Part shown: positions 3,884 through 63,757 of the stretch, in pieces
How positions within the stretch are numbered: the first letter of the stretch is position 1
Layout: each line of letters starts with the position of its first letter
IMG/VR virus record: IMGVR_UViG_3300021185_002806
Length of the DNA stretch: 64,000 bases
Reading direction: 5' to 3' (one strand)
DNA from: a virus
Made by a program: the position numbers and the translations under genes
The notes under the pieces: model-generated
Database searches by the model: none
Seen by the model: the letters and a program-made list of their open reading frames with translations, nothing else
Told to the model about the DNA's origin: nothing

Positions 3884-3891
3884 AAATTAAA

Positions 3892-3966: not shown

Positions 3967-3974
3967 GTAATGAT

Positions 3975-15066: not shown

Positions 15067-15388
15067 CTGGAAAATCTCTGTATAAAAAATGTTGTATTGT
15101 TTCAACATCTACCATGTGATTAAATCCGTGATGTTCATTTTCTATATTTTCTTCATTTCGTAGTACACCAGTCATTGCGTTATCAAGCTGTTGCATGTTT
15201 TTGAATTCCATATCGATACGAAATTCAGGTAAGTCCATAGAACGAAATCCTAATTTCATTCGTGTAAGTCTGTAGCTTTCCATATGCCCTAGTTCTACCA
15301 TCTTGTCTAAAAATAATTTCATTTTTTTAGCAAAATGATGAGCATCTATTTTTGCATTATGGTCAGCATAGATTGTATATACATCCAT
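15056..15388 (-). CDS. DUF6614-like dimeric alpha/beta barrel protein
   Basis: YRLTRMKLGFRSMDLPEFRIDMEF...LYRDFPD. Confidence 0.6.
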   Translation of the reverse strand: MDVYTIYADHNAKIDAHHFAKKMKLFLDKMVELGHMESYRLTRMKLGFRSMDLPEFRIDMEFKNMQQLDNAMTGVLRNEENIENEHHGFNHMVDVETIQHFLYRDFPDEL

Positions 15389-15813
15389 TAAATTGGTCCT
15401 AATATCTCAAAGCCTTTGATTTGTTTTTTATAGGTATGTGCTTCGCCTAAATACAAATACTTATAGCCTTTATCTTTATATATTGCACATTCATTTCTTA
15501 AACTTTTTATACCTAAATGCAATTTAGGAGTTTCGTAATCCCAAGCAAACTGTAGTGCTTCAACGCTTTCATGGTCTTGTATCATAATACAACTGAATGC
15601 AACAAGTTTATCTTCTTCATCGTAGTATCCAATAATATCATTTTGCAAATAATCATTATCGAACATAGGCATTACACTTTTAAAACCTTTGTATCTACAA
15701 TACTTTTTATATATTTCGTTAAGTTCAGGTATATTTGGATTTTTTAAAAATTTACAATTTAGCAAAACAGAATAATTAGTTTGTTCTAAATCTATCCGGG
15801 CATAAGTTGTCAT
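15388..15813 (-). CDS. aminoacyl-tRNA-protein transferase (ATE1/Bpt C-terminal domain)-like GNAT protein
   Basis: IYKKY, KLVAFS, FAWDY...LGIKSL, GYKYLYLG, YK: the ATE_C motif order. Confidence 0.65.
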   Translation of the reverse strand: MTTYARIDLEQTNYSVLLNCKFLKNPNIPELNEIYKKYCRYKGFKSVMPMFDNDYLQNDIIGYYDEEDKLVAFSCIMIQDHESVEALQFAWDYETPKLHLGIKSLRNECAIYKDKGYKYLYLGEAHTYKKQIKGFEILGPI

Positions 15814-15840
15814 ATTGTAACTCCTAGTTACATCTATTTA

Positions 15841-16323
15841 TTATTTCTGAAATCGCCATCTTACAACATCATCATAGTTTTCTTTTGGCCAATTATCATA
15901 ATACCCTTGGTTCTTTAAAATTTCACTTGCATTATTTAACTTCGATAGTCTTTGCACTAATACCAATATGCATTTACCAAAATTCATTGATGCACCATTT
16001 AATATTTCTGGATCATTGGGATGGTCTTCTAGTGCTACTATATCCTTAGACATTGCAATATCATTAAAGTCTGTTACCATGGTTGAAAGTTCTTTTGGAG
16101 TCAAATCTTCTGTTGGACAATAAACAACAACAACCTCATATTTGTCATCCCAATTATCAACGAGAGAATCAATCAGAGGTGATATAGTATGCTTTCCTAC
16201 TGAGACATAATTGATTCTCTCTTTGAGCATGGCCTGTTTCGCAAAAGGACATGGCACTTGCCCAATCTGGTCATTGTGCGTTGACACAAATTCTTCAATC
16301 CATTTTTTAATTTCTGAAATCAA
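15841..16323 (-). CDS. DUF1415-like protein
   Basis: W.E.FV...CPFAK, DHP, LVQRLSKL. Confidence 0.6.
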   Translation of the reverse strand: MISEIKKWIEEFVSTHNDQIGQVPCPFAKQAMLKERINYVSVGKHTISPLIDSLVDNWDDKYEVVVVYCPTEDLTPKELSTMVTDFNDIAMSKDIVALEDHPNDPEILNGASMNFGKCILVLVQRLSKLNNASEILKNQGYYDNWPKENYDDVVRWRFQK

Positions 16324-16730
16324 AGGTCGCCCTCTTTGCGATTTTCTGAATAGTGAACGTCAAACTCACCACCGGGATATCGTGCTTTTAGCTTTTCTAC
16401 ATTCTCTGCTAAAACTTCATTAGGGTCCAAACCCAATGCACGACAACTATTAACCCAATACCACATAATATCACCAAGTTCTCGTTTAGCGTGAAAGATA
16501 GTCTCGCTATCAAGTGGTTTACCTTGAAATATACATTTTTTAACAATCTCTGCAAACTCTCCTCCTTCTGACGCAATACCAATTGCACCTGTCATAAGCA
16601 ATGCCATATTGACACCTGTTTCTTTATCAAGGTTTTTAAGTGTAGAAGTTAGTGCATCTGTATTGCCTGACTGTTCGGATGTTACCTCTTGTACAAAATC
16701 TTTGTACTTGTTCAAGTCTACTTGTTTCAT
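16320..16730 (-). CDS. MazG-like nucleotide pyrophosphohydrolase
   Basis: SEGGEFAEIVKK...ELGDIMWY...NVEKLKARYP. Confidence 0.9.
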   Translation of the reverse strand: MKQVDLNKYKDFVQEVTSEQSGNTDALTSTLKNLDKETGVNMALLMTGAIGIASEGGEFAEIVKKCIFQGKPLDSETIFHAKRELGDIMWYWVNSCRALGLDPNEVLAENVEKLKARYPGGEFDVHYSENRKEGDL

Positions 16731-16768
16731 TTTAATTCCTTTACTACTAGTATAAGATTTATTATATA

Positions 16769-46145: not shown

Positions 46146-46889
46146 TTAAATCTGCCATATCGTATCACGTGACCCATTAGCGATAATTTCTCTAGTCTTT
46201 TCAGATTTTAATCCTGTAATCTGAATAGATGGTCTAGGGAAATTACTTGCGTTTGCAGTGGCATGTGGTGCGTTAGCCCAATCAAAAATATGAGCCTCAC
46301 CAGCTTTCCATCTTTCGTAGATACAATTTCCATACATATAAAATTGTCCTGGTTTCCAATCATCTAAGAAAAATGTAATACGACATACTTGTTCTGGATC
46401 ATCGATACATCTGTCCCATAGTTTATCAATATGTAAATTAAACATTTGACCTGTTAACTGCACATGGGCACGATATTTTAATTCATCTTTTCCGCCTATT
46501 ACTCCAAAGTGTTCTTTCATTTTAACAAGCATTGGATAATCTTCTAACTCATCTTTCATATTTGTAAGCATAAGTTTTTTAGGATCCCCACCACCTTGTG
46601 CAATATCATATTCTTCTTGTTTTAACATTGGGGACTCGTCTTCTCTATCTCCGTAGAATTTACGAGTTTCCCAATTAATAGCTTTTATTGATTGCTCAAC
46701 TAATCTATCTCTATCTTCTTTCCACAAATCTGGATTATCAAATCGGCCTAATACCTTAAACCATTCACCTTCTTTATCAACTTTGTTATCATCAAAATGA
46801 TATTCGCTATGTGCTACTGTCCAATCCCAATTCGATTCGAATTCAGATGGATCTTTTAAGGTCTTAGACCAATTTGTTTTGTGTATCAT
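46146..46889 (-). CDS. 2OG-Fe(II)/cupin-fold hydroxylase-like protein
   Basis: LHID...PHATAN...R: HxD..H facial triad. Confidence 0.7.
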   Translation of the reverse strand: MIHKTNWSKTLKDPSEFESNWDWTVAHSEYHFDDNKVDKEGEWFKVLGRFDNPDLWKEDRDRLVEQSIKAINWETRKFYGDREDESPMLKQEEYDIAQGGGDPKKLMLTNMKDELEDYPMLVKMKEHFGVIGGKDELKYRAHVQLTGQMFNLHIDKLWDRCIDDPEQVCRITFFLDDWKPGQFYMYGNCIYERWKAGEAHIFDWANAPHATANASNFPRPSIQITGLKSEKTREIIANGSRDTIWQI

Positions 46890-48409
46890 GTATAATCGAG
46901 TCCTTTATCTTTTCTTACAAGACTATTTATGAATATACCTAAAGCTATAAGAATACATACAAGAAAAATAGGATGATTATAAATGTTGAATAAATCAAAC
47001 CATCTAAAGTCTGACATCGAACTCAATCCTGGTTTCCAGAATTTATAACCGTACAACTGTAGTGTTCCCCAAAAATATTCATCAATTTTAAATGCTACAA
47101 CGTATGCAACTAGAATTGCTGGTCTACTAATATTAAAGTGTTTACATACTACACCAATAGCACTTAAGATAACGAGTAGAACAAAGTCTTCCCATCCACC
47201 TGTGTATTGCATATTAGCCCACGTTATGACTATCAAAATAAATGTTGCATAAATCCAGAAAGGAACTTCTAATACTTTAAGAATCCATTTGTATAAAACT
47301 ATACTTAATAATGCCACACCAATTGTTCCAAAAATATAACCAAATGCTAAACTGTTTGTAAAGTTGACATCTTCTAATAGACTTGGTCTACCAATCTCCA
47401 TACCAAAGTACATACATATTGCCATAACCATGGCCGCAAATGGTGCCGCAGGTATACCAAACAAACAAGCAGGTATCATACTAGATACTTTCTGTGCATT
47501 GTTGGCTCCTTCACAGCCTAGTAACCCTACAGGATTACCTTCACCAAATGGAATTTCTTGGTCTTTTTCTTTGTGTGCGGCTTTTGTGGCACCGTATGCT
47601 AAGAAGTCGCCTACTGCTCCTCCTACACCTGGCAATAAGCCAGTTACGAATCCAATTAGTCCACCTCTACACATATCTTTCCAATGTCTTCTACAATCAC
47701 CAAAGCCTTGTTTAAGGCCTTCCCAATAACTTCCTTCCATTGGTGGTGCCGCTGATTTTAATTGTTTCTTAAATCCATCTAATAGTTCTGGAACTCCAAA
47801 TAGTCCTGATAGTAAAACTACCATACCTATTCCATTTTGTAAATATTCCCAACCAAACGTTAGTCTAGGATTACTTACAACATCTTCTCCTACCATACCT
47901 ACACATAATCCAAAGATAATAGCACAGATACTTAAGAAAACATTTTTACTTGCCACAAAGCCTACACAGGCTAGGGCCATTGTCATGAAGCCCAGAAACT
48001 CTGGACGTCCAAATAATACAATTACTTTCCCATAATAAGGAAGTAAAAAGAAAGTCAATGCCGCAAATATAACTCCATTAAATGTAGAATCAGTTATAGC
48101 AATTCCCATTGCTCTTGCCGCCTGACCTTTTTTAGCCATAGGGTAACCATCAATAACACAGGCCGCAGTCGTACTTGCACCAGGTATACCAGTAAGAATA
48201 CTTGTATAACTATCTGCACTGGCACAACTTGCCACGATTGCAGTCAGAAAGACCAACCCCAAGTAGGGGTCGGCCATAAAATATGCACCCATGCTGAATA
48301 CAGTAATTAGTGCTGTGGTAACACCTGCGATAGGAATAATACCAATTAGCATTCCATACACGGTGCCGGCCATAGCCCACATTACATATTCCATCCACAT
48401 GAATTCCAT
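46886..48409 (-). CDS. tctA: tripartite tricarboxylate transporter large permease
   Basis: GIPG.....DGYPMA..G.A, G.LPG.G, EGANNA, FGIP; many TM helices. Confidence 0.92.
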   Translation of the reverse strand: MEFMWMEYVMWAMAGTVYGMLIGIIPIAGVTTALITVFSMGAYFMADPYLGLVFLTAIVASCASADSYTSILTGIPGASTTAACVIDGYPMAKKGQAARAMGIAITDSTFNGVIFAALTFFLLPYYGKVIVLFGRPEFLGFMTMALACVGFVASKNVFLSICAIIFGLCVGMVGEDVVSNPRLTFGWEYLQNGIGMVVLLSGLFGVPELLDGFKKQLKSAAPPMEGSYWEGLKQGFGDCRRHWKDMCRGGLIGFVTGLLPGVGGAVGDFLAYGATKAAHKEKDQEIPFGEGNPVGLLGCEGANNAQKVSSMIPACLFGIPAAPFAAMVMAICMYFGMEIGRPSLLEDVNFTNSLAFGYIFGTIGVALLSIVLYKWILKVLEVPFWIYATFILIVITWANMQYTGGWEDFVLLVILSAIGVVCKHFNISRPAILVAYVVAFKIDEYFWGTLQLYGYKFWKPGLSSMSDFRWFDLFNIYNHPIFLVCILIALGIFINSLVRKDKGLDYT

Positions 48410-51111: not shown

Positions 51112-51426
51112 TTAGTCCGCCGGTTCTAATGTTACCGTCAATGGGTAACCATGCGCCCTACTTGCTCCGTGAGTCTCTTCCACCTTTTGTTCTGCTATTT
51201 CTAAGTTAAACATACCAACTATAGCTTTATCATCTACGTGAATTTTGTTTGCCAAGTCTTCTGCGGTCTGTTCATCATGCCTGTATAATTCGATTAATAA
51301 TCGCACAACGAATTCAATTGGAGTACCATCATCATTGTGCATAACAACATAGAAACGCTTTGGCGGTTCTATTACTGTTTTTGTTGTAGCATCAACAATA
51401 GTATCTGTTTCGTTGCTTACTTGCAT
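51112..51426 (-). CDS. clpS: N-degron adaptor ClpS
   Basis: VVMHNDDGTPIEFVV...IH...AEQK...YPL. Confidence 0.9.
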   Translation of the reverse strand: MQVSNETDTIVDATTKTVIEPPKRFYVVMHNDDGTPIEFVVRLLIELYRHDEQTAEDLANKIHVDDKAIVGMFNLEIAEQKVEETHGASRAHGYPLTVTLEPAD

Positions 51427-51472
51427 TATTTACCTCACTATCTTTTAAGTATTTATCTGAATTATAGCACCA

Positions 51473-52336
51473 TTACAGAAGTGAATCAAGTCTTTTTTGA
51501 TAATTACTTAACATGTCTTCTATGTGCTCCATATCCTTTGATACAGCAATCTTTTCTGCTTTTGTATGTATCTTCTTAAATTTGTTACCAGTAAAGTTTA
51601 TATCTTCATACTTTACTATTTTATTTACTTTATCACCCAATGTTTCCAGTAATTTAATGTTTATCTCACAACATCTATGGACCCACTCATATGGAGTAGG
51701 TTGATGCATTTTTCTTTTAATGTTTGGATTGAAACTTATATTGCATTCACTTATTGATGTAGAAGTTTCATCTGTACTAGCCTTATGATAAACCATCGTA
51801 AGTTGTGCAACTATTTCACTTAGTGCATTATCTAAAGGATCTCTAATCAATATGTGATGTTTGGTATCGTACTTGATATCCTCGAATGCAATTCTTGGAT
51901 TAAGTTTAGCATCATAATCATACAATTTGATTGCCTCGGATACTCTTGCCAACTTAAGCAAATTCGTTATTCCATCTAAATGATTTTTTATGTACCACAT
52001 TGGAATAGTTCGATTATAGAACGGAGTAATACCATTTTCGGTAGATTTCCAATCAGTCCAAACCCATTCATCATTATGATTATCTAAATGATGCGTAATA
52101 TTATTTGGTTCATTGTCACATTTCCACTTAAATTCATTATCAAATGGATGACTTGCTTGATATTCAGAGTTATTAGTATTGGGATTTTCCTCTTTGCATA
52201 TCGACGGCCATGCACCATGTACAGACATAATCTCTTGTGCTAAATCAGATTTAACTTGTCCAGTTGTTTTTAAGTAATTACAGTATGCAGATGATCCCGA
52301 CCTTGGTTGACACCATACTGTTATGTGCTTTGCCAT
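51473..52336 (-). CDS. sulfotransferase-like protein
   Basis: PRSGS PAPS-binding loop, LIRDPLD..LS, VKYED. Confidence 0.75.
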   Translation of the reverse strand: MAKHITVWCQPRSGSSAYCNYLKTTGQVKSDLAQEIMSVHGAWPSICKEENPNTNNSEYQASHPFDNEFKWKCDNEPNNITHHLDNHNDEWVWTDWKSTENGITPFYNRTIPMWYIKNHLDGITNLLKLARVSEAIKLYDYDAKLNPRIAFEDIKYDTKHHILIRDPLDNALSEIVAQLTMVYHKASTDETSTSISECNISFNPNIKRKMHQPTPYEWVHRCCEINIKLLETLGDKVNKIVKYEDINFTGNKFKKIHTKAEKIAVSKDMEHIEDMLSNYQKRLDSLL

Positions 52337-52404
52337 TATAATGTCCTTATCATCTGGTTAGAAGCGAGGAAACCTCGCTTCTATTTATGAAGTAATATTT
52401 TCTA

Positions 52405-52848
52405 CTATGAGATTTCAATACTACGAGGCTTCTTACCTTCTGGAACGATACGTTCTAAAGATATTTTCAGTAACCCGTCTTTCAACTCGGCACCTTTCAC
52501 TTCAACATCATCTGCAATAGTGAATGCTTTAGAGAACATTCTTTTAGAGATACCTCTGTGAAGAACACCGTCTTTATCATCATCTGATTTTTCTTTCTTA
52601 ACAGATTTAACTGTCAAAATGTTATCAGCATAGTCAACTGTAATATCATCTTTTGAGAATCCAGCTAATGCTAGTTCTACATCATAAGTGAAATCTCCAG
52701 TCTTTACGATATTGTAAGGTGGGAAGTTTACTTGGGTTTGAAATGTTGCAACATCGCCATCGAACATACGTTCAAAATGGTCAAACATGTTGTCAAAGCC
52801 TACAGTTACAGGTCGTAACTGGTTAAAAATAGATAGTCCGTTTGTCAT
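52405..52848 (-). CDS. small heat-shock protein Hsp20 (IbpA-like)
   Basis: FPPYNI, LAGF, HRGIS.R.F, DGLL.I. Confidence 0.95.
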   Translation of the reverse strand: MTNGLSIFNQLRPVTVGFDNMFDHFERMFDGDVATFQTQVNFPPYNIVKTGDFTYDVELALAGFSKDDITVDYADNILTVKSVKKEKSDDDKDGVLHRGISKRMFSKAFTIADDVEVKGAELKDGLLKISLERIVPEGKKPRSIEIS

Positions 52849-52910
52849 TGTTAACTCCTTTGTTAAGCAAGTTGATTAAAGTGTAGACCCTATCAAGCAA
52901 TCTACACAGT
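52849..52910 (-). promoter_or_regulatory. ROSE-like RNA thermometer in hsp20 5'UTR
   Basis: Two hairpins; the 3' one, AAC-UUGCUU-aaca-AAGGAG-UU, places UUGCU opposite the SD. Confidence 0.75.
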
Positions 52911-52965
52911 TATTTATGCACACTATTGTACATATATACTAATATAATGATTATTTATGGAAATG

Positions 52966-53220
52966 TCAAGTCTTTTTCTCAAGTTTTTCTGAAAAAAGTT
53001 CAATTCCCTTAGATGGTCCCGCATCCCGCGGCAATCCACCATATTTTCCAATATAATCTTCAAGTACTGCTTTATACCAAAGTTGGCTATTGTGGTGTGC
53101 TTTTTTGTTATATTTTGAGATACCAACACTTGTTCCATCCTGAGTAAGCAATGCTCTTGTGCTTTCTTGTTGCAATTCTCTTAGTGTTAATTTTTCTAAA
53201 TCTATATTCAATTTATTCAT
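52966..53220 (-). CDS. hypothetical protein
   Basis: NK.AHHNSQ.WYKAV...YG.LP. Confidence 0.7.
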   Translation of the reverse strand: MNKLNIDLEKLTLRELQQESTRALLTQDGTSVGISKYNKKAHHNSQLWYKAVLEDYIGKYGGLPRDAGPSKGIELFSEKLEKKT

Positions 53221-53280
53221 CCTTTGTTCATATTTTGATAAATAACATTATAATCAAACACATTTAGGAGGCCACCTATT

Positions 53281-53598
53281 ATGATTAAAGAAACCAAAGT
53301 ATTTTACCCACATATTGTAAAACAGTATGATGATAATGCACAACTGATTTCTGAGAATAATTATGATACATATTATTCACTAATGAGAACAATTCTTTCC
53401 GATAACGGAATTGACTTGACTGATAATACTAAGTATAAAGAAGATTTGACTACTGATAAGTTCGAAGGCAAAATTACTATTGTTTATCCAAACAATGAAA
53501 CTATGACTGCTATCGAAACTGCTATCGGTTCTCAAATGTCTTCTTTTAGCGACAGTCAACCAATCTTTGAAGAATTCTCTGATAATCATTTGTTCTAA
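53281..53598 (+). CDS. hypothetical late protein
   Basis: SD aggagg, late promoter at 53237. Confidence 0.8.
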   Translation: MIKETKVFYPHIVKQYDDNAQLISENNYDTYYSLMRTILSDNGIDLTDNTKYKEDLTTDKFEGKITIVYPNNETMTAIETAIGSQMSSFSDSQPIFEEFSDNHLF

Positions 53599-53617
53599 TA
53601 CAAAATAATCATGAAAT

Positions 53618-53648
53618 GAAAAGGTCGCTTTATGCGGCCTTTTTTTAT
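53618..53648. terminator. bidirectional terminator
   Basis: aaaaggtcgc-ttta-tgcggcc-ttttttt between convergent genes. Confidence 0.85.
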
Positions 53649-53926
53649 TCCAATTCTTGTGTTCTTTGTTTTCTATACCAACGCTTCTTTCCGGCATCCC
53701 GTGCTTTACGTTTAACCTCACTTGGTTTCACATAAGCAGTACGGTCACGAACCTCTTGTATAATGCCTGCATCTTGTACTTTCTTTTTGAACTTACGTAA
53801 TGCTCTTTCAAATTGTCCGTTTCTTACTTCTACTGTTAGACCCGACTTATTAGTTTGTGAAAAGTCGTTTCTATCGTTTGATTTATATTGTCTATTCTTA
53901 TTATAACTATTATTGTAACTAGTCAT
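53645..53926 (-). CDS. rpsU: 30S ribosomal protein bS21
   Basis: VEVRNGQFERALRKFKKK...YVKPSE.KRK. Confidence 0.92.
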   Translation of the reverse strand: MTSYNNSYNKNRQYKSNDRNDFSQTNKSGLTVEVRNGQFERALRKFKKKVQDAGIIQEVRDRTAYVKPSEVKRKARDAGKKRWYRKQRTQELE

Positions 53927-54464
53927 TTTTTATTATTACACCTATTATCCTATTCCCGTTTGTTTTTAGAGGGAGGTCGTATTTGAAACTACTCAAATAC
54001 TCAGAGATTTGGGAATTAAAGAACTCTAACACATCACTTGCCTTAGAATTTTCCCTGCCCCTCATTTGTACTGTCACTTTTACTTTATTGCCTTTATCAA
54101 TAAACTTTTGAACTTGGTTAAGTTTCATCTTTAGGTCGTTCTCACCTATAGCTGGTCTAAACTTAACTTCTTTAACTTCAACTGAATTTTGTCTGGCTAG
54201 TTTTGCCTTCTCTTTTTCACGTTTTTTGATTTCGTAATTGTACTTATTTATACTAATGATTTTTGCAACTGGCGGCTTTGCATCTGGAACAATTAGAATC
54301 AAATCTAATCCTTCTGAATCCGCTTTTTGCTGTGCTTCTTGTTTTGATAAGACACCAAGTTGTTCACCGGTGTCTGTGACTACACGTAATTCATCTGCAC
54401 GAATACGTTGATTGGCTACAACGAATGGCTTTCGCCCTCGTTCTTCCTTAAAGTTTTTCTTCAT
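53919..54464 (-). CDS. infC: translation initiation factor IF-3
   Basis: N..IRA.ELRV, LDLILI.P.AKPPVAKI, KEVKFRP.I, RGRE. Confidence 0.95.
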   Translation of the reverse strand: MKKNFKEERGRKPFVVANQRIRADELRVVTDTGEQLGVLSKQEAQQKADSEGLDLILIVPDAKPPVAKIISINKYNYEIKKREKEKAKLARQNSVEVKEVKFRPAIGENDLKMKLNQVQKFIDKGNKVKVTVQMRGRENSKASDVLEFFNSQISEYLSSFKYDLPLKTNGNRIIGVIIKND

Positions 54465-55722
54465 TCGTTCCTGTTGATTCCCCTATTTCTTCTGTAAATA
54501 CCAAAATCGGTTCTTTGTTATGTTTAATAAAATCACCTGTAATTTCTACTGATACAAGCCCTTGTTTAGCAAGTTTAGGCAACTTGAATTGTAATTTCAA
54601 TAGTGATTTTTCTAACACACTCCTAAGACCTCTTGCTCCTGTCTTATTTGATTTTGCTATTTCAGAAATCTCATTTATTGCATCTTTAGTTAAATTTAAC
54701 TCAACTCCATCTAATTTAAAAATCTTCTTAAATTGTGCCATTAGATTGTTTTTAGGCTCAGTCAATATACGACTTAGTTCATCTTTAGTTAAGTCGTTGA
54801 TACCTACTAGTATTGGAAAACGTCCCATGAACTCTGGTATAATACCGTATCGGATTACGTCTTCTGGTAATACTTCTTCTGATACTCTCATATCATCTGC
54901 CGAGTCTTGTGCCATAACTCTTGCGCCGAAGCCAATTGAACCATTGGCATTTAATCTTCGCTTGATTACTTTATCAAGACCAACAAAGGCGCCGCCGACA
55001 ATAAACAGGATTTTGCTTGTATCAACTTCAAGCATTTCTGCGCCAGGATGTTTTCTTCCACCACCCGGTGGAACACGTACAACCGTACCTTCAACAATTT
55101 TTAATAGGGCTTGTTGAACACCTTCACCACTAACATCTTTAGTGATAGAGATACTTTCACCCTTCTTTGCTTTTTTATCGATTTCATCAATATAGATAAT
55201 ACCTTGTTCTGCTTTTTTAATATCAAAGTCTGATGCCATAAGTAAACGTTGTATTACATTTTCAACATCTTCACCTACATACCCACTTTCTGTTAGGGTA
55301 GTTGCATCTACTTGTGCGAAAGGAACATCTAAAAATTTTGCGATAGTCTTACCTAAGAGAGTTTTACCTGTACCACTTGGTCCAAGCATCATTACGTTAG
55401 ATTTCTCTAACTCTACTTCATCATCATCTTCTGGTAAATTAATTCTTTTATAGTGGTTGTAAACAGCAACACTCAAAACTTCTTTAGCTTCATCCTGACC
55501 AATTACATGAGCATTTAAAAACTCATTGATATCCTCAGGAGTTGGAATATCGCTGTTTACTTCTGTTGTCTTGTTATCTACGCTCTTACGTTCATGGACG
55601 ATAGAATGACAAAGGTCAATACACTCGTTACAGATATACGTTGCCGGTCCTGCAATTAAGGTGTTGATTTCATTCTTATGCTTTCCACAAAATGAACAAT
55701 GATAATCTTTTTTATCGGACAA
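54448..55722 (-). CDS. clpX: ATP-dependent Clp protease ATPase subunit ClpX
   Basis: CSFC..CNEC zinc domain, GPSGTGKT, GYVG, DEIDK, GRKHP, IGF loop, TGARGLR. Confidence 0.97.
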   Translation of the reverse strand: MSDKKDYHCSFCGKHKNEINTLIAGPATYICNECIDLCHSIVHERKSVDNKTTEVNSDIPTPEDINEFLNAHVIGQDEAKEVLSVAVYNHYKRINLPEDDDEVELEKSNVMMLGPSGTGKTLLGKTIAKFLDVPFAQVDATTLTESGYVGEDVENVIQRLLMASDFDIKKAEQGIIYIDEIDKKAKKGESISITKDVSGEGVQQALLKIVEGTVVRVPPGGGRKHPGAEMLEVDTSKILFIVGGAFVGLDKVIKRRLNANGSIGFGARVMAQDSADDMRVSEEVLPEDVIRYGIIPEFMGRFPILVGINDLTKDELSRILTEPKNNLMAQFKKIFKLDGVELNLTKDAINEISEIAKSNKTGARGLRSVLEKSLLKLQFKLPKLAKQGLVSVEITGDFIKHNKEPILVFTEEIGESTGTNEEKL

Positions 55723-55739
55723 TTTTTATACTTTCTCTA

Positions 55740-57272
55740 TTAATTGTTATTATTCAAACCATCAAGCCAGCCTGATTTCTTTTCTGCTTTAGTATTTATT
55801 TCCCTTTCAACCTTTGATTTAATTTCTTTCAATGATTTTTCATCAACATTTTTTAAATCAATTTCTGCCGGGTCTAAATACACGCCACCTGCTTTGCTTT
55901 CTGTTTTAACTTCTTCCACATCATTAGTTTCTTCTATAACTTCTTCTAAATCACTATCACTATTATCGCTCATTGAGGTCGTTTTGTCAAGCGTTTTCTT
56001 TTCAGATTTTGAAAATAGTGTGTCTAGGATTTCATTCTGTCTTCCTTCATGATTGTTTCTGTTAGCAAAACTATAGTTTGCCGCAATCAATAGAATAACT
56101 GCTAATGGGTCGAATACAAAAATAAAGATAATAATTAACCAACGTACTGCTTCATCAATAATAGTAGGAGTGGTTTCCCCATATACTAATTCTGCAATGT
56201 ACTTAATTGGTCCAACTTCTGCTTCAAGGGCCCTTACTTCACTTTCTAATTCGAATTTCTCATCATAGAGATTTTCGATGGTCTGTTCCGTTTCTGACAC
56301 TTTTAAAACTAAAGCGGTTATCTCATCCGTATTGTCTATTTCTCCAACTTGTGTTAGGAGATTTCGTAGACGATTAATATTATCTTGTGCATTTTGAATT
56401 TCTCTGTCTGCCATGCCACGCAAACGTTTTATTTCTTCACGTGCTTGGTCGATAATATCTGTGTTTACTGAATTACGAATATCCTCAACGATAGCAATAA
56501 GTCTGTCTTTTTCTGAATTTGATTTTTTAATAAATTCAGTAACTTTGCCAGCAGTGATATATCCGTATTTTCCATCTACTTTTGTACCAATCATAGCCTG
56601 TATCTTTTTCACATTATTTTCATCATCTACATTCTCAGCATAAGATTGTATCTTAGCAAGAGTTTCGTCAATTCGAACAATCTGTTCAGTATACGACTTT
56701 ACTTGATCCTCAGAACCTCTTTGTTCTTCTTTAACAATGTCTAACTGTTCATCAATCGCAGGCTGAATACGTAAGTATGCATTATCCATACGTTGTTGTT
56801 CAGCATCAATCTGACTATTGATATCAGATGAATCATCACTAGTTTCGTTATCAAGTTTAGCTATTTTTATTTCAGTACGTTCTATTAATGAATTAAATCT
56901 GATAATATCATTGTCAATACGTTCAACCTTTGCTACGTTAGCCGTTCCCTGTGCGGCTTGTTCTAGGTGTGCTTTCGATAAGAAACCGAAAATACCCATG
57001 CTTGTGATGAACATCAAAACGACAACTGCTATTGTCAAATAAAATTTTAATAGAAATGGAGCCCTCTTCCAATTACGGTACACCCACGATGCGGCTATAA
57101 GTTTGCCTATTTCAAGTGAACCCGCCATTAATGCTACTGGTACCGCAGAGGCGGCAAAAATCGCCATGAGTCCGACGATTGAAAACCAGGCGGCTATAAA
57201 CGCAATAGCAATAGCCGTAGCAAAGGTAATAATTGGAAATAACATAATCTTCTCCTTCTTAGTAGACCTCAT
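55740..57272 (-). CDS. membrane-anchored long coiled-coil protein
   Basis: N-terminal TMs, coiled coil with PG-binding-like IQ..IG.KVDG.YG, GPIKYIA, FDPLAV. Confidence 0.8.
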   Translation of the reverse strand: MRSTKKEKIMLFPIITFATAIAIAFIAAWFSIVGLMAIFAASAVPVALMAGSLEIGKLIAASWVYRNWKRAPFLLKFYLTIAVVVLMFITSMGIFGFLSKAHLEQAAQGTANVAKVERIDNDIIRFNSLIERTEIKIAKLDNETSDDSSDINSQIDAEQQRMDNAYLRIQPAIDEQLDIVKEEQRGSEDQVKSYTEQIVRIDETLAKIQSYAENVDDENNVKKIQAMIGTKVDGKYGYITAGKVTEFIKKSNSEKDRLIAIVEDIRNSVNTDIIDQAREEIKRLRGMADREIQNAQDNINRLRNLLTQVGEIDNTDEITALVLKVSETEQTIENLYDEKFELESEVRALEAEVGPIKYIAELVYGETTPTIIDEAVRWLIIIFIFVFDPLAVILLIAANYSFANRNNHEGRQNEILDTLFSKSEKKTLDKTTSMSDNSDSDLEEVIEETNDVEEVKTESKAGGVYLDPAEIDLKNVDEKSLKEIKSKVEREINTKAEKKSGWLDGLNNNN

Positions 57273-57335
57273 CTGTATTTATCTAATTAAGAAGGAGAAT
57301 TTAACTTCTATGTTATACTTTCGTATAGATTGTAG

Positions 57336-57851
57336 TTAATTTAGTGTTGTAGTAACGTTTAAAAACGCTATAGTTCCGACTTTCCATTGGTCTTTAGTCT
57401 GATATACATAACTATTACCATTAGATGTTTGGAATGTAGTGTTGTAACCTACAGTTTTGTTTACTACTGTTTCGATATAAATTACATCACATTGTTGCAC
57501 TTGCTTGTAACCAACAACTACTTGTTGTGATTTATTTTTATTGGCAGTATCCGCACCTATGATGGCACCTAATGCAGTTGCGGCATCTTTACCCTTACCG
57601 CCACCGAATTGATTACCGATTACACCACCGATAATTGCACCGAATAAAACATCACCTGTACTTGCAGAACTTTGCGTTCTACCATAAATAGGAACATCTA
57701 CTGTTCTACATTGCTGTGAAGGTGTCTTTTGTACTACTTGTTGAGTAATTGCAGTACTATCTGTTACCTCTGCTTGTACTCTTGTTGAATTCGCTTGTGC
57801 AGTTGAAACTAACATCAACGAACTAATGATTGCTACTATAAACTTATTCAT
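57336..57851 (-). CDS. exported glycine-zipper 2TM protein
   Basis: GAIIGGVIGNQFGGGKGKDAATALGAIIG; promoter at 57886-57914. Confidence 0.88.
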   Translation of the reverse strand: MNKFIVAIISSLMLVSTAQANSTRVQAEVTDSTAITQQVVQKTPSQQCRTVDVPIYGRTQSSASTGDVLFGAIIGGVIGNQFGGGKGKDAATALGAIIGADTANKNKSQQVVVGYKQVQQCDVIYIETVVNKTVGYNTTFQTSNGNSYVYQTKDQWKVGTIAFLNVTTTLN

Positions 57852-57953
57852 CTTATATCCTCTCGTATGATTAATAATTACTTACAGTATACACGTTTTA
57901 GGTGGATTTGTCAAGTTTTTTATGTAGAAAAAAGTGAGATAATATAGGGATTT

Positions 57954-58886
57954 TTAGATATATTTGGTGATTTTTCTACCACCTTTTGGGTATACTGAGA
58001 AACGTGCGCCTTTTACACCGAAGTTATCTCTATCACCTTTGTACATCGCCATTAATACTGGTTCGAATTCGCCTTCTACACGTTCACCATTTGAGTGATG
58101 TGGTCCGGTTGATACAAGTTTGTTACCTTTAAATACTGGATCGCCTTGTAATACTAAGTCAACATTTTGCTTACTAGGTTCACCTTTAAACCCAATACCA
58201 TAAATTGCTATACCTCGTAATATACCATTTTTAATTTCTCTTGCATATGTAGTTGCTCTTGGGATTTGACCATCTGTCATATCGATTACTGTCTTAGCAA
58301 ATGCAAGAATTTCTTCTTTTGCTTCTGGAAATCTTTCGTATACAGTTTTCATTTCTCTGTCACTCATACCGCCCCATTGTCCAAAATCTTTTGCACGTGA
58401 ACCTTTCTTATGAGATATCCAAGCAACTTCATTACCTGAGGCATCCACTGCATGAAAGTCAGACTTAGGTGTTCCAGGAGTTGTGACAAACTTAGCAACA
58501 TTAACTATTCTACCGCCAATGTCTAGTTGTATTTCTGCCTTATCACCTTTTAATTTTGCAAACATTTCACCAATACTACCAAGTGCCGCATCCTCATCAC
58601 GTGTAGAAAAACCTGCGCCTTTGCCTCCAAATTCACTTGTTTTTTCTAAACTTGTAAGTCGTACTACTCTTCCGTCGTGTGTTGCAAATTTATCAGGTAT
58701 AATACCTTGCTTTAGATTAGCTAGAACTTCATCGTCTTTTTTTAATTTAATCGTAGGCTTATCACCACCTAATGCTACAAACAGTTGTCCTGTTTCGTAT
58801 TTTCGAATAAAGTTGGCTAGTCTCTTATTATCTTTAATAAGATCCTTTTTAGTAAGTTTACCTTCTATGATATCTGAATAACGCAT
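57954..58886 (-). CDS. PD-(D/E)xK-like nuclease-fold protein, possibly head-packaged
   Basis: TPKSDF...WISHK; MRYSDIIE leader; late promoter at 58892. Confidence 0.6.
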   Translation of the reverse strand: MRYSDIIEGKLTKKDLIKDNKRLANFIRKYETGQLFVALGGDKPTIKLKKDDEVLANLKQGIIPDKFATHDGRVVRLTSLEKTSEFGGKGAGFSTRDEDAALGSIGEMFAKLKGDKAEIQLDIGGRIVNVAKFVTTPGTPKSDFHAVDASGNEVAWISHKKGSRAKDFGQWGGMSDREMKTVYERFPEAKEEILAFAKTVIDMTDGQIPRATTYAREIKNGILRGIAIYGIGFKGEPSKQNVDLVLQGDPVFKGNKLVSTGPHHSNGERVEGEFEPVLMAMYKGDRDNFGVKGARFSVYPKGGRKITKYI

Positions 58887-58917
58887 ATATGTATTTATCA
58901 TTTATGTTACAGATACA

Positions 58918-58950
58918 AATGGAAAACCCACTCCGAAGAATGGGCTCCAT
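58918..58950 (-). terminator. rho-independent terminator with C(UUCG)G loop
   Basis: cccatt-cttcgg-agtggg-tttt on the minus strand. Confidence 0.75.
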
Positions 58951-59068
58951 TAAAATTTGTTTTGTGGAATGTCAGAATGTGTTACGCAGTGTCCGACACA
59001 CTTATACCTTTTTTAAAATCCTATGCGTACTTAGTTATTAGTTTTGTTCTATAAAGTTATTTATCTTC

Positions 59069-60000
59069 TTAGTGCAAACCGTTAGGAACGATTATATAGT
59101 GAATAGATAAAACTACACCAACACTTGCACCTAAGCCAATCATCATCTTTATGAAGTCTTTGGTCACAAGAGGGAAAACAGTTTTAAACTTTTCTTTACC
59201 AGTAATTGTTGCCATAGCAAGTTCACGACCACAATTGGTATATCATTCAGTTCCTTGAAGAACCAAAGAATTAGAAAATATACACAATCAATTATTGTAG
59301 CACTTCTTACATAACGTGTATTATGTTTTTCAATTACGATGTTTTGTATTTTACCACCACCAGTATAAAATATATAACCTAAGCCAAATACAAATACTGC
59401 ACTTACCATTACCATTAAATCAAATGGGATTTGTCTTGGTAAGAATACGGCAATGTTTGCCATATCATGTGATAACCAAGTGAACCATAAAAAGCCAGTT
59501 GTTATCCACTGACCTACTCGCCAATACATTTTATGATTTTCAGCGACTGGTTTTGCTTCGTCAAGTATTTTAGTAACACCAATCCAGATTACATATGCCG
59601 CCACAGCCGCAACTGCATAACCCATCATTGATTTGACTAGCATCTTCTCTAATATAAATGTACTAGCAAATGCACTTAACACTAAGAAACTTGTACTTAC
59701 TGGTACACCTATTCTTGTTAATATCAATAGTAAGCCTGGTGCGGCGGCATGATACCATTGAATCTCTTGAAATGGAATTTTGTTTAATCGTCCGTAACTA
59801 ATATCTCCACCATTAGTTGTCCAACCATACCACAAAGTATAAAGCAGTACCGCACTTGCGGCTCCCCACATTATCTTCCAATTAAATTTTTCGTTATTTG
59901 ATGCAATCCAAGTACCAAGAGTTTGTACTGAATCGTTTGCTATTACTGAATATGCGGCAAATAGAAAACCTATTGCCATCCATAGGGTGAGTGCATCCAT
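59069..60000 (-). pseudogene. PiT-like phosphate/anion permease with internal frameshifting deletion
   Basis: IANDS..LG / SHDMAN and GVPVSTS PiT-like signatures; likely true C-terminus CGRELAM...PNGLH lies in another frame (59233-59069). Confidence 0.75.
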
Positions 60001-60169
60001 TTTTTATCTCCTTCTGCTTAACGTCTTTACCACGTTGCTCACATAATTAGACCAGGCTCGATTGATGCCTGGTTGTAACCTTATTGTTACTTTCATATTT
60101 ATGAATGTAACACAAAAAAGATATTAAATCAATACACTTTTTAATTGAGTTGTTGATAAGTTGGGGAAA

Positions 60170-60235
60170 TAAAAAAGAGACAGTCAGCAATATAAAATGA
60201 AAGTGAGTAAAATATGGTTTGCCAACCGTCTCTTA
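60170..60235 (-). ncRNA. terminator-like hairpin with 28-nt anti-RBS loop (candidate sRNA)
   Basis: 14-bp stem gagacggttggcaa/ttgctgactgtctc with G-U pairs, followed by a U-tract. Confidence 0.55.
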
Positions 60236-60268
60236 ATTTTTGATTACTTGGTATTGTAATCAGAAAAT

Positions 60269-60485
60269 ATAAGCAAAGTAGGAGGGACTTGGTTACACCC
60301 CCAACCCCTCGACACAGATACCATTCTGAATCCAGGGAACCTAGTTCCGTTCGGTAGAACGATGTGACTCTTAGCCTCTCAGCTTTGAACCTGGGTACCA
60401 CCCCTAACTAGTCAAGTTCGACCGTCTGGTAACAGCCTCTTCCTTGCACTACAATCATTGAGTCGCTAAACTCTCTGATGCTTAT
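60269..60485 (-). ncRNA. unidentified highly structured ncRNA (217 nt)
   Basis: GC-rich island; terminal stem AUAAGCA/UGCUUAU; many helices; dedicated promoter at 60492-60520. Confidence 0.8.
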
Positions 60486-60491
60486 GTTATT

Positions 60492-60520
60492 AATATAGCA
60501 TAATGATTCGGTATTGTCAA
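60492..60520 (-). promoter_or_regulatory. sigma70-like promoter of the 217-nt RNA, with TGATTCG motif
   Basis: TTGACA(60515-20)-N17-TATATT(60492-97); TGATTCG at 60504-10. Confidence 0.88.
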
Positions 60521-60528
60521 CAACTTTT

Positions 60529-61251
60529 TTAATTTTTTTTAATATAAATTAAATCAGCCCAATCTGTACGACCATTCATTGGGTTTTTACTAACATGTGC
60601 GATATCGAATAATTCAAAACCCAAGGGAATCAGGGTTTTTTCTATATCATAAAAACTACACTGCTTTTCATATAAGTCATAAAATGATAATTCAGTAAGA
60701 ACGATTCGGGTATTCTTTAGTGTTTCAATTCCATTTTCTAATATCTCTGGTTCGGCTCCCTGAGCATCCATTTTAATCATATCTATGTAATCTATATTAT
60801 TTTCACTTGTAAATTTATCTAACGTTATAACTGGAAATTGTATAGTTTCAGATTCTAAGAAATTCTTATGGGCTTTCTCTGGTTTATTGATAGCAATACT
60901 ATCCTTGCTGTCTGCATTTAATTTATAAAATCCACTGAGCATAGGCTGGTGTTTATTAATATTAAAATCTTGCCAACCATTTGTTGAACCAATTGCTGTA
61001 TTATATACATGAACGCCGGGTAATCTACCTTTTGTTAAGTATAATTGTTGATATGCATCTGGTAAAGGCTCTATAGAATGTATTACTGCATGTTCCCATA
61101 TAGTCTTTAACTTATCTACTGTTTGTCCTATATTTGCACCAATGTCTAATATTATGGGAGTATCAGTTCCAACTAAGTTTTGCAAAACTTTGTTTTTATC
61201 AAACTTAGAAAGATAATCTTTTGTTCGTTGATTACTATTTTTATACTTCAT
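60529..61251 (-). CDS. FkbM-family methyltransferase
   Basis: LDIGANIG, IEP, TLD, KMDAQGAE. Confidence 0.92.
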   Translation of the reverse strand: MKYKNSNQRTKDYLSKFDKNKVLQNLVGTDTPIILDIGANIGQTVDKLKTIWEHAVIHSIEPLPDAYQQLYLTKGRLPGVHVYNTAIGSTNGWQDFNINKHQPMLSGFYKLNADSKDSIAINKPEKAHKNFLESETIQFPVITLDKFTSENNIDYIDMIKMDAQGAEPEILENGIETLKNTRIVLTELSFYDLYEKQCSFYDIEKTLIPLGFELFDIAHVSKNPMNGRTDWADLIYIKKN

Positions 61252-61790
61252 ACGATTACTGTCCTATCTCTCCAGGTTTCATCACAATAGTTTACAATAA
61301 TACTTACTCTGTTGTTTAGCAAAGGCTTCAATCCATGTAGTTCTGTTCCAGTATTTGCAAAGAACCAACCAGAATTCTTTCTAGCAGGAGTATTTGTTTT
61401 CATGAAACTTGTACTTGTGTCTGTGTCTGATAGGTATATCTGTAAAGTAAATAGTTTTGCTTTATCATCAAAATGATTATGTAACCAACTTCCTTTTGCA
61501 TCTTTGCATAGTTCGATTCGTGTGCCTAAATTTGTAAAGTCTTTTTCACAAATTTCACTAAACTTTTCTTTCATAAGTCTACTGTCAAAATATTCACAAA
61601 CTTCTAGGAAAGACGAATGACTTGACTGGTTCATCCAGTTTCTCTTGCCCGTCTTGTCTGTACGTTTGCCTTCCATTGGAATAAATGGCAAATCATTAGA
61701 CTGTTTTAATACTGCATCCTCAAGACCTAATTTGAATACATCTTCCACTACCCAAACAGGATAACCATAATCTTTTTTAGTTATTATCAT
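61248..61790 (-). CDS. 2OG-Fe(II) oxygenase
   Basis: HFD...QIYL...HG...RVS. Confidence 0.8.
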   Translation of the reverse strand: MIITKKDYGYPVWVVEDVFKLGLEDAVLKQSNDLPFIPMEGKRTDKTGKRNWMNQSSHSSFLEVCEYFDSRLMKEKFSEICEKDFTNLGTRIELCKDAKGSWLHNHFDDKAKLFTLQIYLSDTDTSTSFMKTNTPARKNSGWFFANTGTELHGLKPLLNNRVSIIVNYCDETWRDRTVIV

Positions 61791-62734
61791 AATACTAACT
61801 CCCAAAATCCATTATTATTTCTGAGTACTGTGCTACCGTTTACTTTTACTTCATTGCCTACCTTTTCATAACAACGAGGTGGCATATAAGTAGTAGGTTT
61901 AGCTAAGTTTACTGTTATAGCGGCTCCCTGTACTTCTCTATATTTAGCCCTTGTATTTTTAGGAGATAATGTTCTAGTGACTGAGCGTGGACTAAAATCA
62001 TCATTACCTGTATAGCCCAGTGATAATTTTCTCCCTGTAACATCAAATTTATGTAAATGCATTTCATCAACCATTGGATAAAATGATTTTATATAACCAT
62101 TTGAATAATCTGTTATGATTGCGTTTACTTTGCCTTCATATACATTTGCTAATTGCATTCTTGTGTTACCAGGATGTAATTGCCATCTGCCACGTACTGT
62201 TAAATGACTAAAACATTCTTGTTGCATTTGTTCTATATGGGCTTTCCATCTTGTTTTTGCAATGCCGGTATTAAATGTAGGTTCAAATTGAGTTATGGGT
62301 CTTGTAGGTTTCTGTTCCGCCACTATACCGGGCATATACCAATCAGGAAACCAAACTAAATTTAAAGGGTCATATATTTTTTGGCCATTTCTTAATTCTT
62401 CTAATATGTGATAAAACGCATTTGGTTTGGTTAACAAATCATCACGTGAATGTTCAGTGTTAAGCCAATCTTCATTGCTCCAAACTTTATTACTATTAGA
62501 AAATAATTCATCTATTACATGTACAATACTGCCATGTATATTACGGCGAATGCCATCATCATCAAATCCAAAAAGATTTATCCATATATCTTTTATTGTG
62601 CCTCGATATATCCAGGTCTTTTGCCCTGACTCTGCATCTGCACGTTTAGTTACAGTTAGATAATGTTCGTATGAAGTTAGGTGTCTGTGGGACCAATTAG
62701 GTGCTTCTTTCCAAAGACTTTCGTTATCAGTCAT
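61787..62734 (-). CDS. hypothetical protein
   Basis: Long coupled ORF with HPG.TR motif. Confidence 0.7.
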
Positions 62735-63065
62735 AATCGTCTAACAACTTTGTCTTATCTCCTGTATATCCCATTGCAGGGTTTAGTGAGTCTGCATCTG
62801 GAAGAGGGTCTTCTCTCTCTGTAATGACAGGCCATTGCTGTGACCATTTCTCATTTATATCATACAACCGTTGCGTGAACAATGGCGATGTATCTGGAAT
62901 GATTGCATCTGCTGGACACTCTGGTTCGCACACACCACAGTCAATGCATTCGTCTGGGTTAATTACTAACATATCTTCGCCAACGTAAAAACAATCTACT
63001 GGGCAAACTTCAACACAATCAGTATATTTACATTTAATACAATTCTCGTTTACTACGTATGCCAT
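62727..63065 (-). CDS. fdxA: 7Fe ferredoxin
   Basis: [18 protein letters not shown]...[12 protein letters not shown]. Confidence 0.95.
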
Positions 63066-63094
63066 ATATTTTCTTTATTAACCCCAAATTAAAA

Positions 63095-63355
63095 TATGAC
63101 TTTTCTGTTGCCAGGTAAGCCATCAACCCCTACGTGCTTAAAACTAAGCCGCTAATGCCATTTCTGGCTCATAATTTGCGTTTGCAATTATAGTTTTTGA
63201 CCAATAACGCAGTCATCCGGTAAACTCCACTTCACTTTCGCACCTGTCGATCCTAGTTCAGCCCCATCATAAAAACATTCAGTAAATGTGCTTATGGTGG
63301 AGCTGTGGGGTACTGCCCCCCAGTCCAGAATACGTCTACGTTGCTTCAACGTCTA
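63095..63355 (-). ncRNA. ssrA: circularly permuted (two-piece) tmRNA, alphaproteobacterial type; tag ANANYEPEMALAA
   Basis: Acceptor piece ...GGGGCAGUACCCCACAGCUCCACCA ends at 63295; 29-nt intervening segment; coding piece starts GGGGCUGAA...GAUCGAC at 63265; G3-U70 pair; tag ORF 63185-63144. Confidence 0.95.
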
Positions 63356-63400
63356 CAATATTATTTATACACGATAAACGTATATAAGTCAATACATTAA

Positions 63401-63757
63401 TTAAAATGTAATTGATGTTCCGATTACTGATTCAGTTCTTTCGAATGAATCGTTCAAATCATTTTTAAGATAAATTGTTACATTATCTTGTAGCGGGAAT
63501 GAAAAGTTTAACATTTGCTTGTTCAAATCTAAAAAATCTTTTCCATCAGCATCGATGTCCCATTTTGCACCGTAAGATGCAGTGATACCAAATAGTGGTT
63601 TTGCTACTGAAAACTCACCGTTTTGTGTATTTGCCTCAATCGCTCTTTCAAGTGATAGAGAAAACGTCATATCGTCTGATACAGACGTTCCTTCAGCCAT
63701 CGCTGATGTTGTAAATAAGGCCGCAACTAGCAGACCTGTTAGTGTTACTTTTTTCAT
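63401..63757 (-). CDS. exported beta-strand-rich protein ending in Phe (outer-membrane protein-like)
   Basis: Signal peptide, C-terminal SITF, promoter TTGACA-N17-TATAAT at 63809-37. Confidence 0.65.
   Translation of the reverse strand: MKKVTLTGLLVAALFTTSAMAEGTSVSDDMTFSLSLERAIEANTQNGEFSVAKPLFGITASYGAKWDIDADGKDFLDLNKQMLNFSFPLQDNVTIYLKNDLNDSFERTESVIGTSITF

Follow-up and report, generated by a model that had tools for sequence, protein, structure and literature searches.

Parts of the Clp proteolytic machinery, and transfer-messenger RNAs (tmRNAs), are already known from jumbo phages. The Agrobacterium phage Atu_ph07 encodes ClpX, ClpA, ClpB, ClpP and ClpS (PMC6102473), and a survey of jumbo phages found ClpP, ClpS, ClpA and ClpX in subsets of them and proposed that phage ClpS feeds the host ClpAP (PMC7824862). 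tmRNAs are known from huge phages, some of which also have SmpB (PMC7162821). Here we analyse a stretch of viral DNA of 64,000 nucleotides (IMG/VR record IMGVR_UViG_3300021185_002806; the window, in what follows, is this whole stretch), which carries a tmRNA, the unfoldase ClpX, the adaptor ClpS, and a small protein, here called ATE-like, that resembles the catalytic domain of the transferases ATE1 and Bpt. The original prediction for this DNA was that the phage supplies the taggers and the readers of both the C-degron and the N-degron routes of proteolysis, from dispersed genes, and borrows the proteases of its host. We favour, with moderate confidence, a different explanation: the phage lineage has as its core a proteostasis and translation set that includes its own ClpA and two ClpP-family proteins and relies on SmpB of the host, and the ATE-like protein, a GNAT-fold protein, belongs to a separate gene cassette.

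Genome-wide statements made here rest on relatives of the window; a search of IMG/VR for a 42-base segment of its tmRNA gave no exact match. IMG/VR was queried with single window proteins, and related viral records were searched in six frames; the near-complete set consists of five IMG/VR records, 97-100% complete and 343-364 kb long. The closest complete relative has 342,607 bp, direct terminal repeats and a CheckV completeness of 100%, and is identical to the window at 87% of positions in ClpX and 93% in the ATE-like protein. The IMG/VR contigs with an ATE-like gene that were checked with CheckV represent from about 10 to 100% of a genome, the larger ones implying a length of about 350 kb. 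On a related JGI contig the ATE-like gene is accompanied by Gp23, Portal_T4 and T4_baseplate genes. The window itself has a GC content of 33-37%, with nearly every gene on the minus strand, and among its PHROG matches are an endonuclease and a phage DNA ligase. Its sole nucleotide match among deposited phages is a segment of 228 bases in common with Pelagibacter phage Mosig, over a manA RNA. As part of the favoured explanation, a marine jumbo phage related to T4, with a genome of about 350 kb, is a fairly probable source of the window.

The centre of the proteolytic set is a block of genes around clpX. ClpX is encoded at 54448-55722 (-), with a TTG start, and scores 568 bits on the NCBIfam equivalog NF003745 (cut-off 359), 546.7 bits on TIGR00382 (cut-off 370.75) and 59.6 bits on the Pfam domain zf-C4_ClpX. 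The translation contains the C4 zinc finger, GPSGTGKT (Walker A), GYVG, IIYIDEIDK (Walker B), GGGRKHPG and GSIGFG, and the GYVG, RKH and IGF loops are thus all intact, as had been claimed. Downstream come genes for translation initiation factor IF3 (infC, 53919-54464 (-); Pfam IF3_N 85.9 bits, IF3_C 69.3 bits, TIGR00168 143.8 bits), ribosomal protein bS21 (rpsU, 53645-53926 (-); Pfam Ribosomal_S21 56 bits, TIGR00030 61.3 bits), a small heat-shock protein of the Hsp20/IbpA type (52405-52848 (-); Pfam HSP20 63.8 bits, and 96.7 bits on the IbpA model, which is below the cut-off of that model) and finally ClpS at 51112-51426 (-). Directly upstream of clpX, at 55740-57272 (-), is a gene for a membrane protein of 510 residues (TM510) with no family assignment: it has no PHROG, and only a sub-threshold match to Tetraspanin in Pfam. 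It could act as a membrane anchor or a substrate gate for the phage ClpX.

The co-oriented, collinear order TM510-clpX-infC-rpsU-hsp20-clpS recurs across 80 viral contigs. The block was counted by tblastn of the window proteins on 80 IMG/VR loci centred on ClpX (ClpX identity 48-88%), in which TM510 was found at 74, IF3 at 58, bS21 at 64, Hsp20 at 71 and ClpS at 71; contig ends cut some of these loci short, which may explain part of the missing members. The clpX and clpS genes of the window are therefore not dispersed, as had been supposed, being only 3 kb apart within a conserved block. Between hsp20 and clpS the window also has an open reading frame (ORF) of 287 codons without a family, at 51473-52336 (-), which would appear to be a recent insertion into the block, since it was found in only 2 of the 80 loci.

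The bacterial pairings are clpS with clpA and clpX with clpP. The arrangement in the phage lineage is another one: in a relative of 343 kb, clpA lies at 15 kb and clpP at 167 kb, whereas clpX and clpS are together at 291-295 kb. The set resembles those of Rak2-like and of T4-related jumbo phages, such as Atu_ph07, in that ClpX, ClpA, ClpP and ClpS are encoded together (clpP and clpA being here those of the relatives), and differs from them in that clpX and clpS share one block with infC, rpsU and hsp20, with a permuted tmRNA nearby. The literature searched on the Clp sets of jumbo phages makes no mention of this block or of a tmRNA in that context, and no paper describing the clpX-infC-rpsU-hsp20-clpS block was found in the literature searched. 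The order is stable enough to be of use as a lineage marker.

The identification of ClpS holds (Pfam ClpS 81.7 bits, cut-off 23), although it remains below the cut-offs of the NCBIfam equivalogs (74 bits against 143) and is on that account a divergent member of the family. Its identity to the ClpS proteins of cultured phages is 30-37%; ClpS is annotated in the PA5oct-like Pseudomonas phages and in Sinorhizobium phage Phosso. A gapless alignment with ClpS of E. coli shows that the pocket for N-degrons is kept, with N34, D35, D36, T38 and H66 of E. coli corresponding to N31, D32, D33, T35 and H63, while the gatekeeper Met40 is replaced by Ile37. Among the relatives the gatekeeper is M in 28, F in 10, I in 4, A in 2, and S and V in one each, a variation that hints at a shifting specificity. 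E79, E82 and K84 of E. coli ClpS, which we take to be contacts with the N-domain of ClpA, are also kept in the window.

The window has neither clpP nor clpA, as the original prediction stated: tblastn with ClpP, the ClpP paralogue and ClpA of a relative gave only a weak AAA cross-match inside clpX. The conclusion that had been drawn from this, that the phage borrows the proteases of the host, is not borne out by the related genomes. Besides ClpX and ClpS, all five near-complete relatives encode ClpP with a paralogue, and a ClpA-like unfoldase that has a Clp_N domain and an IGF loop. Their ClpA-like genes are full length and score 773-902 bits. Across a wider sample, ClpA is present in 8/8 large related genomes, with Clp_N present in the one examined. 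In the closest complete relative, ClpP scores 259 bits and has the Ser, His and Asp motifs, and the ClpA-like protein (738 residues) scores 902 bits across positions 4-733 of the ClpA model, with Clp_N, two Walker A/B pairs, GYVG, and an AIGFT docking loop. The second ClpP-family gene of the same genome (L098:1381-2022; about 112-113 bits), which has a counterpart in every near-complete relative, encodes a protein with a proline-rich N-terminus, and could be a partner of the ClpP2/ClpR type or a head protease. Since the relatives have complete ClpXP and ClpS-ClpAP sets and no SmpB, it would appear that only SmpB is borrowed, which reverses the earlier conclusion.

The tmRNA lies upstream of the block, at 63093-63409 (-), and is of the two-piece (permuted) alpha type. 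It scores 127.6 bits on the Rfam family RF01849 alpha_tmRNA (gathering threshold 50) and 121.4 bits on RF04321 tmRNA_permuted (gathering threshold 47). ARAGORN places it at 63053-63388 (-) and reads the tag ANANYEPEMALAA followed by a stop; the tmRNA and its ALAA tag are thus as claimed. An alpha-type tmRNA is present in 5/5 near-complete relatives, and in 12 of the 80 related loci a tmRNA is found no more than 10 kb upstream of the clpX block. The tags of relatives include ANANYQPEMAMAA, ANDNYQPEMAMAA, ANDNFANEDLALAA, ANNNRAPEMALAA, ANANYAPEMALAA, ANTNAAPAMAIAA, ADENLALAA and ANDSQFALAA, and every tag that was read ends in (L/M/I)AA. Because the tmRNA is of the alphaproteobacterial two-piece type, the host is probably an alphaproteobacterium.

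SmpB was found in none of 12 related viral records, including five near-complete genomes (the ORFs of the window were not all scanned), and the adaptor SspB in none of five related genomes (0/3 near-complete). The absence of SmpB from the relatives implies that it must come from the host. The system is thus like bacterial trans-translation coupled to ClpXP in that the last residues of its tag are LAA and its ClpX retains every loop for substrate handling and for docking to ClpP. It differs from it, and from the tmRNAs of huge phages, in that the tmRNA is a two-piece alphaproteobacterial one and the related genomes lack SmpB and SspB.

Promoters of an early type precede the tmRNA and the hsp20-clpS part of the block. 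A pattern scan identified sigma70-like early promoters at 63364-63392 (-) before the tmRNA (TTGACT-N17-TATAAA), at 52941-52969 (-) before hsp20...clpS, and at 16761-16789 (-) before the run of genes that includes the ATE-like gene (mazG, DUF1415-like, ATE-like, DUF6614, amidinotransferase). There are 15 sites of this type in the window, compared with 1.5 expected. The T4-type late box TATAAATA shows no enrichment, with 5 sites where 11.9 are expected. The temporal class was considered as a feature that might separate the Clp module from the cassette, and was ruled out, because early-type promoters precede both. The manA RNA motif, at 60272-60470 (-) (55.5 bits, gathering score 55.2), has its own early-type promoter at 60492-60520.

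On the basis of the canonical functions of these families, we propose the following mechanism. The core of the lineage would consist of the early block TM510-clpX-infC-rpsU-hsp20-clpS, the permuted tmRNA a few kb upstream of it, and, at other sites of the genome, clpP, its paralogue and clpA. Relying on AlaRS, EF-Tu and SmpB of the host for charging and delivery, the phage tmRNA would place a tag ending in ...MALAA on stalled chains, and the tagged chains would be degraded by the phage ClpXP, and possibly by ClpAP. ClpS would dock on the N-domain of the phage ClpA, and so direct ClpAP to proteins whose N-termini are bulky and hydrophobic, at the expense of those with an ssrA tag. Both the C-degron half (phage tmRNA and phage ClpXP, with host SmpB) and the reading of N-degrons by ClpS with the phage ClpAP are reasonable inferences. 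An abundant uncultured lineage of aquatic phages of about 350 kb would thus have, as core genes, a complete private Clp machine and its own tagging RNA, which lends support to the view that the proteostasis and translation of the host are rebuilt, and not just used, by very large phages.

The same genes may also be explained as general housekeeping, in which Clp, tmRNA, Hsp20, IF3 and bS21 serve translation, folding, the clearance of defective phage proteins or the assembly of virions in a nutrient-poor host, without any selective attack on host proteins. The block does unite translation factors, a holdase and parts of the Clp system; its genes are core to the lineage rather than patchy; and the papers on Atu_ph07 and on jumbo phages propose roles in stress relief, assembly or as a translocase (PMC6102473, PMC7824862). 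This account is compatible with the favoured explanation, and differs from it only in the substrates that are degraded. The presence of ClpS and of a phage-specific tag suggests that there is some selection of substrates, and the variable gatekeeper of ClpS hints at a shift in specificity. We therefore regard housekeeping alone as possible but somewhat doubtful.

The remaining component of the original prediction is the ATE-like protein, which was described as a stand-alone ATE1/Bpt-like domain and is indeed present at 15388-15813 (-). It consists of 141 residues and scores 28.8 bits on Pfam ATE_C (cut-off 25). The family has more than 500 homologues, nearly all of around 140-160 residues. An exhaustive phmmer search matched residues 25-137, approximately, to the C-terminal part of proteins of 225-268 residues, and these longer relatives match ATE_C only, and never ATE_N. 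ATE_N is likewise absent from the 141-residue protein itself and from 8 related genomes (0/5 near-complete). On the curated Bpt equivalog NF002344 the protein scores 23 bits, far below the cut-off of 252, and the Aat domain PF03588 (Leu_Phe_trans) was found neither in the protein (E <= 0.01) nor in the 8 related genomes (0/5 near-complete). The protein has no PHROG family, a comparison with 50,697 deposited phage records gave no match to it, and no paper describing a phage ATE-like gene was found in the literature searched.

The AlphaFold2 (AF2) model of the ATE-like protein is a single GNAT domain with a pLDDT of 95.6. The best matching folds are the C-terminal GNAT domains of aminoacyl-tRNA (aa-tRNA) transferases (L-PGS, Z 14.3; MprF, 14.2; FemX, 14.1), with Sbb17 at 11.9 and ordinary acetyltransferases at Z 11-13; ATE1 also appears in the Foldseek list. 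With the family profile, chains of ATE1 are the top matches in the PDB, at a weak E of 0.009. In this weak profile alignment W91 corresponds to Trp260 of klAte1, S104 and E108 to Ser273 and Glu277 of the arginine pocket, and Y128 and K129 to Tyr303 and Lys304, the loop before the Tyr-Lys pair being about 6 residues shorter than in ATE1. For this mapping the chain index of 7wfx was taken as the number in the klAte1 paper plus 4 (PMC9351520), an offset deduced from the title of the entry (EVAA-KlAte1) and from the way in which Trp260 and Ser255 line up. Among 28 ATE-like homologues, E108 is conserved in 25, Y128 in all 28 and K129 in 26. Where the arginine-specific ATE1 has Ser/Glu, the leucine-specific Bpt carries Ala/Gln (PMC9351520). 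The model makes it probable that the protein is an aminoacyl-tRNA-dependent transferase, and from the sequence its donor side is probably kept, for arginine. The acceptor side is a different matter: in ATE1 the acidic N-terminal residue of the acceptor is held in a pocket in ATE_N, where Arg80 is essential and a Cys4 zinc finger is nearby (PMC9351520).

The genomic surroundings of the ATE-like gene are highly constant. Of 94 loci with the gene, 90 have a DUF1415-like gene immediately upstream of it, in most cases overlapping by 4 bp, and 83 have a DUF6614 gene immediately downstream; 21 contain an inserted amidinotransferase-like gene, whose position varies. In the window an early promoter is followed by mazG, DUF1415-like, ATE-like, DUF6614 and amidinotransferase, the whole spanning 13804-16789 (-). 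The DUF1415-like protein (also resembling DUF6875; 15841-16323 (-)) scores 24.0 bits on Pfam DUF6875 (cut-off 24.5) and 18 bits on Pfam DUF1415 (cut-off 26). Its family has an invariant cysteine (Cys25) in a PCP(F/Y)A motif, as well as LEDHP and NG..MN.G motifs. The DUF6614 protein (15056-15388 (-); 81.1 bits on Pfam DUF6614) is extremely conserved, with a mean column identity of 81% and 37 invariant columns. For both of these proteins, searches of the PDB with single sequences and with family profiles gave no significant match. The amidinotransferase-like protein (434 residues, 13804-15108 (-)) matches SxtG (6u1r, E 4.3e-6) in a phmmer search of the PDB, and also AGAT (E 2e-4), HsvA and StrB1, over the last 60 or so residues, which include GLHC; it has no Pfam match outside this C-terminal region. 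A fusion of ATE_C and DUF6614 in a single protein (P0008, 214 residues) was considered as Rosetta-stone evidence and rejected, its DUF6614 part spanning 59/116 profile positions: it is probably a read-through or an artefact of gene calling, because the DUF6614 part is partial and the genes adjoin or overlap each other. A prediction of the complex of ATE-like with DUF6614 gave a score of 0.00, which counts neither for nor against binding.

A clue to what the cassette may do comes from the model of the DUF1415-like protein (AF2, pLDDT 89.9). Its sole standout match in the PDB is AglA (9ub3), with a VIA Z of 5.8 (the only one of 5 or more) over 143 residues and a Foldseek probability of 0.99. The family DUF6875 has been renamed cytochrome P422, a family of thiolate-haem proteins. 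AglA is a thiolate-haem guanidine N-hydroxylase, with its ligand Cys44 near the N-terminus, and it acts on a compound that AglC makes from Arg-tRNA (PMC12866846, PMC8976061). The model thus makes it possible that the DUF1415-like protein is a thiolate-haem enzyme. The cassette resembles the AglC/AglA pair of argolaphos biosynthesis (PMC12866846, PMC8976061) in having a GNAT of the aa-tRNA type beside a small protein with an invariant N-terminal cysteine and with AglA as its only notable fold match, and often an arginine-using amidinotransferase as well. It differs in having DUF6614 and in being found in a phage, and the likeness is at the level of the fold, weak in the case of the haem enzyme (Z 5.8). 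Sbb17 (9wqx) is another small-molecule aa-tRNA transferase.

Most likely, the translationally coupled early cassette would take arginine from Arg-tRNA and pass it to an acceptor that is not a protein or is of some other, undefined kind; oxidation of the GNAT product by the DUF1415-like protein may follow, in parallel with the AglC/AglA step of argolaphos biosynthesis. An arginine cassette of this kind is previously undescribed in phages and, if confirmed, would be a more original finding than the Clp kit. A 7Fe-type ferredoxin (Fer4 and DUF3470; 62727-63065 (-)) adjoins the tmRNA and is kept in 24/80 related loci; it could supply electrons to the cassette's putative haem enzyme.

These observations bear directly on whether the phage writes both degrons, the one with its tmRNA and the other with the ATE-like protein using Arg- or Leu-tRNA, and reads both with ClpX and ClpS, so as to redirect proteolysis to chosen host proteins. 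None of the four parts is missing, and each looks intact; homology links the ATE-like family to the catalytic GNAT of ATE1 and Bpt, whose Tyr-Lys pair it appears to keep; the gene occurs in 5/5 complete genomes that have ClpS, ClpA and ClpP, and early-type promoters stand before both modules. The likeness to the Leu/N-degron pathway (PMC9351520, PMC10115844) accordingly consists in the pocket of ClpS, a ClpA with Clp_N in the relatives, and an ATE_C GNAT with a putative Tyr-Lys pair; the differences are that the ATE-like protein is 141 residues long without ATE_N, that there is no Aat, and that the gatekeeper of ClpS is Ile in place of Met. It is the writer that fails to fit. The protein has no ATE_N, the seat of the acceptor pocket in ATE1 and Bpt, it falls far short of the Bpt equivalog, and its constant partners are the DUF1415-like and DUF6614 genes rather than the Clp genes.

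The donor also fits poorly. The N-terminal residues that bacterial ClpS recognises are Leu, Phe, Tyr and Trp; Arg in that place needs the action of Aat first. An arginine donor would therefore give no residue that ClpS can read directly, and since the phages have no Aat, a step by the Aat of the host would still be needed. Nothing was found that ties the phage tRNA-Arg or tRNA-Leu to the ATE-like transferase. The co-occurrence of the ATE-like gene with the Clp set, proposed as a check, is seen in 5/5 near-complete relatives and is confined to a single lineage of about 350 kb; the cultured phages with ClpS (the PA5oct group, Atu_ph07 and Phosso) have no ATE-like gene. All of the cases being in one lineage, they do not amount to independent evidence. 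Of the proposed taggers and readers, the tmRNA and ClpX of the C-degron route and the ClpS reader of the N-degron route thus stand, while the ATE-like protein, without ATE_N, with a donor pocket that looks Arg-type, and fixed in its own cassette, does not stand as the N-degron writer. A phage that writes as well as reads both degrons is in our view unlikely, and to name CtrA or defence proteins as the targets of redirected degradation is speculation. A variant, in which the DUF1415-like and DUF6614 proteins replace ATE_N and together with the ATE-like GNAT form an aminoacyl-tRNA-protein transferase that labels the N-termini of selected host or phage proteins for the phage ClpS-ClpAP, so that with tmRNA and ClpXP there would be a private two-degron system, we consider very unlikely.

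Several points nevertheless weigh against the explanation that we favour, with its self-sufficient Clp set and separate cassette. ClpP and ClpA are seen only in relatives, at 87-93% amino-acid identity. The arginine pocket is read from a profile alignment at E 0.009, and the link from the DUF1415-like protein to AglA is weak, with Z 5.8, a Pfam score just under the cut-off and no match at the level of sequence. A functional link between the ATE-like protein and the Clp system may also exist, because every complete genome with ClpS and ClpA has the ATE-like gene. Finally, in one sub-clade of other phages, distant ATE_C relatives of 254 residues are encoded just downstream of a Clp_N-AAA unfoldase, an arrangement that would also suit a phage writing both degrons. 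The unfoldase has one ring and 499 residues, and is found upstream, together with an ORF of 69 codons, in 15/52 of the loci with a 254-residue ATE_C protein (L210:4225-7388, L214-L229). The constant partner of these relatives is instead an unassigned and unrelated protein of 218 residues, present in 47/52 loci. The Clp_N-AAA neighbour was therefore rejected as an independent link to Clp, belonging as it does to one syntenic sub-clade. The 218-residue partner was also considered as kin of the DUF1415-like protein, and rejected at an hhalign probability of 0.2.

The tRNA genes named in the original prediction are present according to both ARAGORN and Rfam. They form a run at 3806-4061 (-), comprising tRNA-Arg(tct) (3806-3883), tRNA-Glu(ttc) and tRNA-Leu(taa) (3975-4061), and tRNA-Arg(tct) and tRNA-Leu(taa) are part of a cluster of six tRNAs.

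The window also has some other features. In an ORF of 187 codons at 11972-12535 (-), the only match is to part of the NTPase domain of DNA polymerase III alpha (positions 25-94 of 260); it may represent a split or interrupted polymerase gene. Two further genes are unusual metabolic cargo for a phage: PutA, full-length and bifunctional (proline dehydrogenase and aldehyde dehydrogenase), at 16769-19630 (-), and the tricarboxylate-transporter subunit TctA, at 46886-48409 (-).

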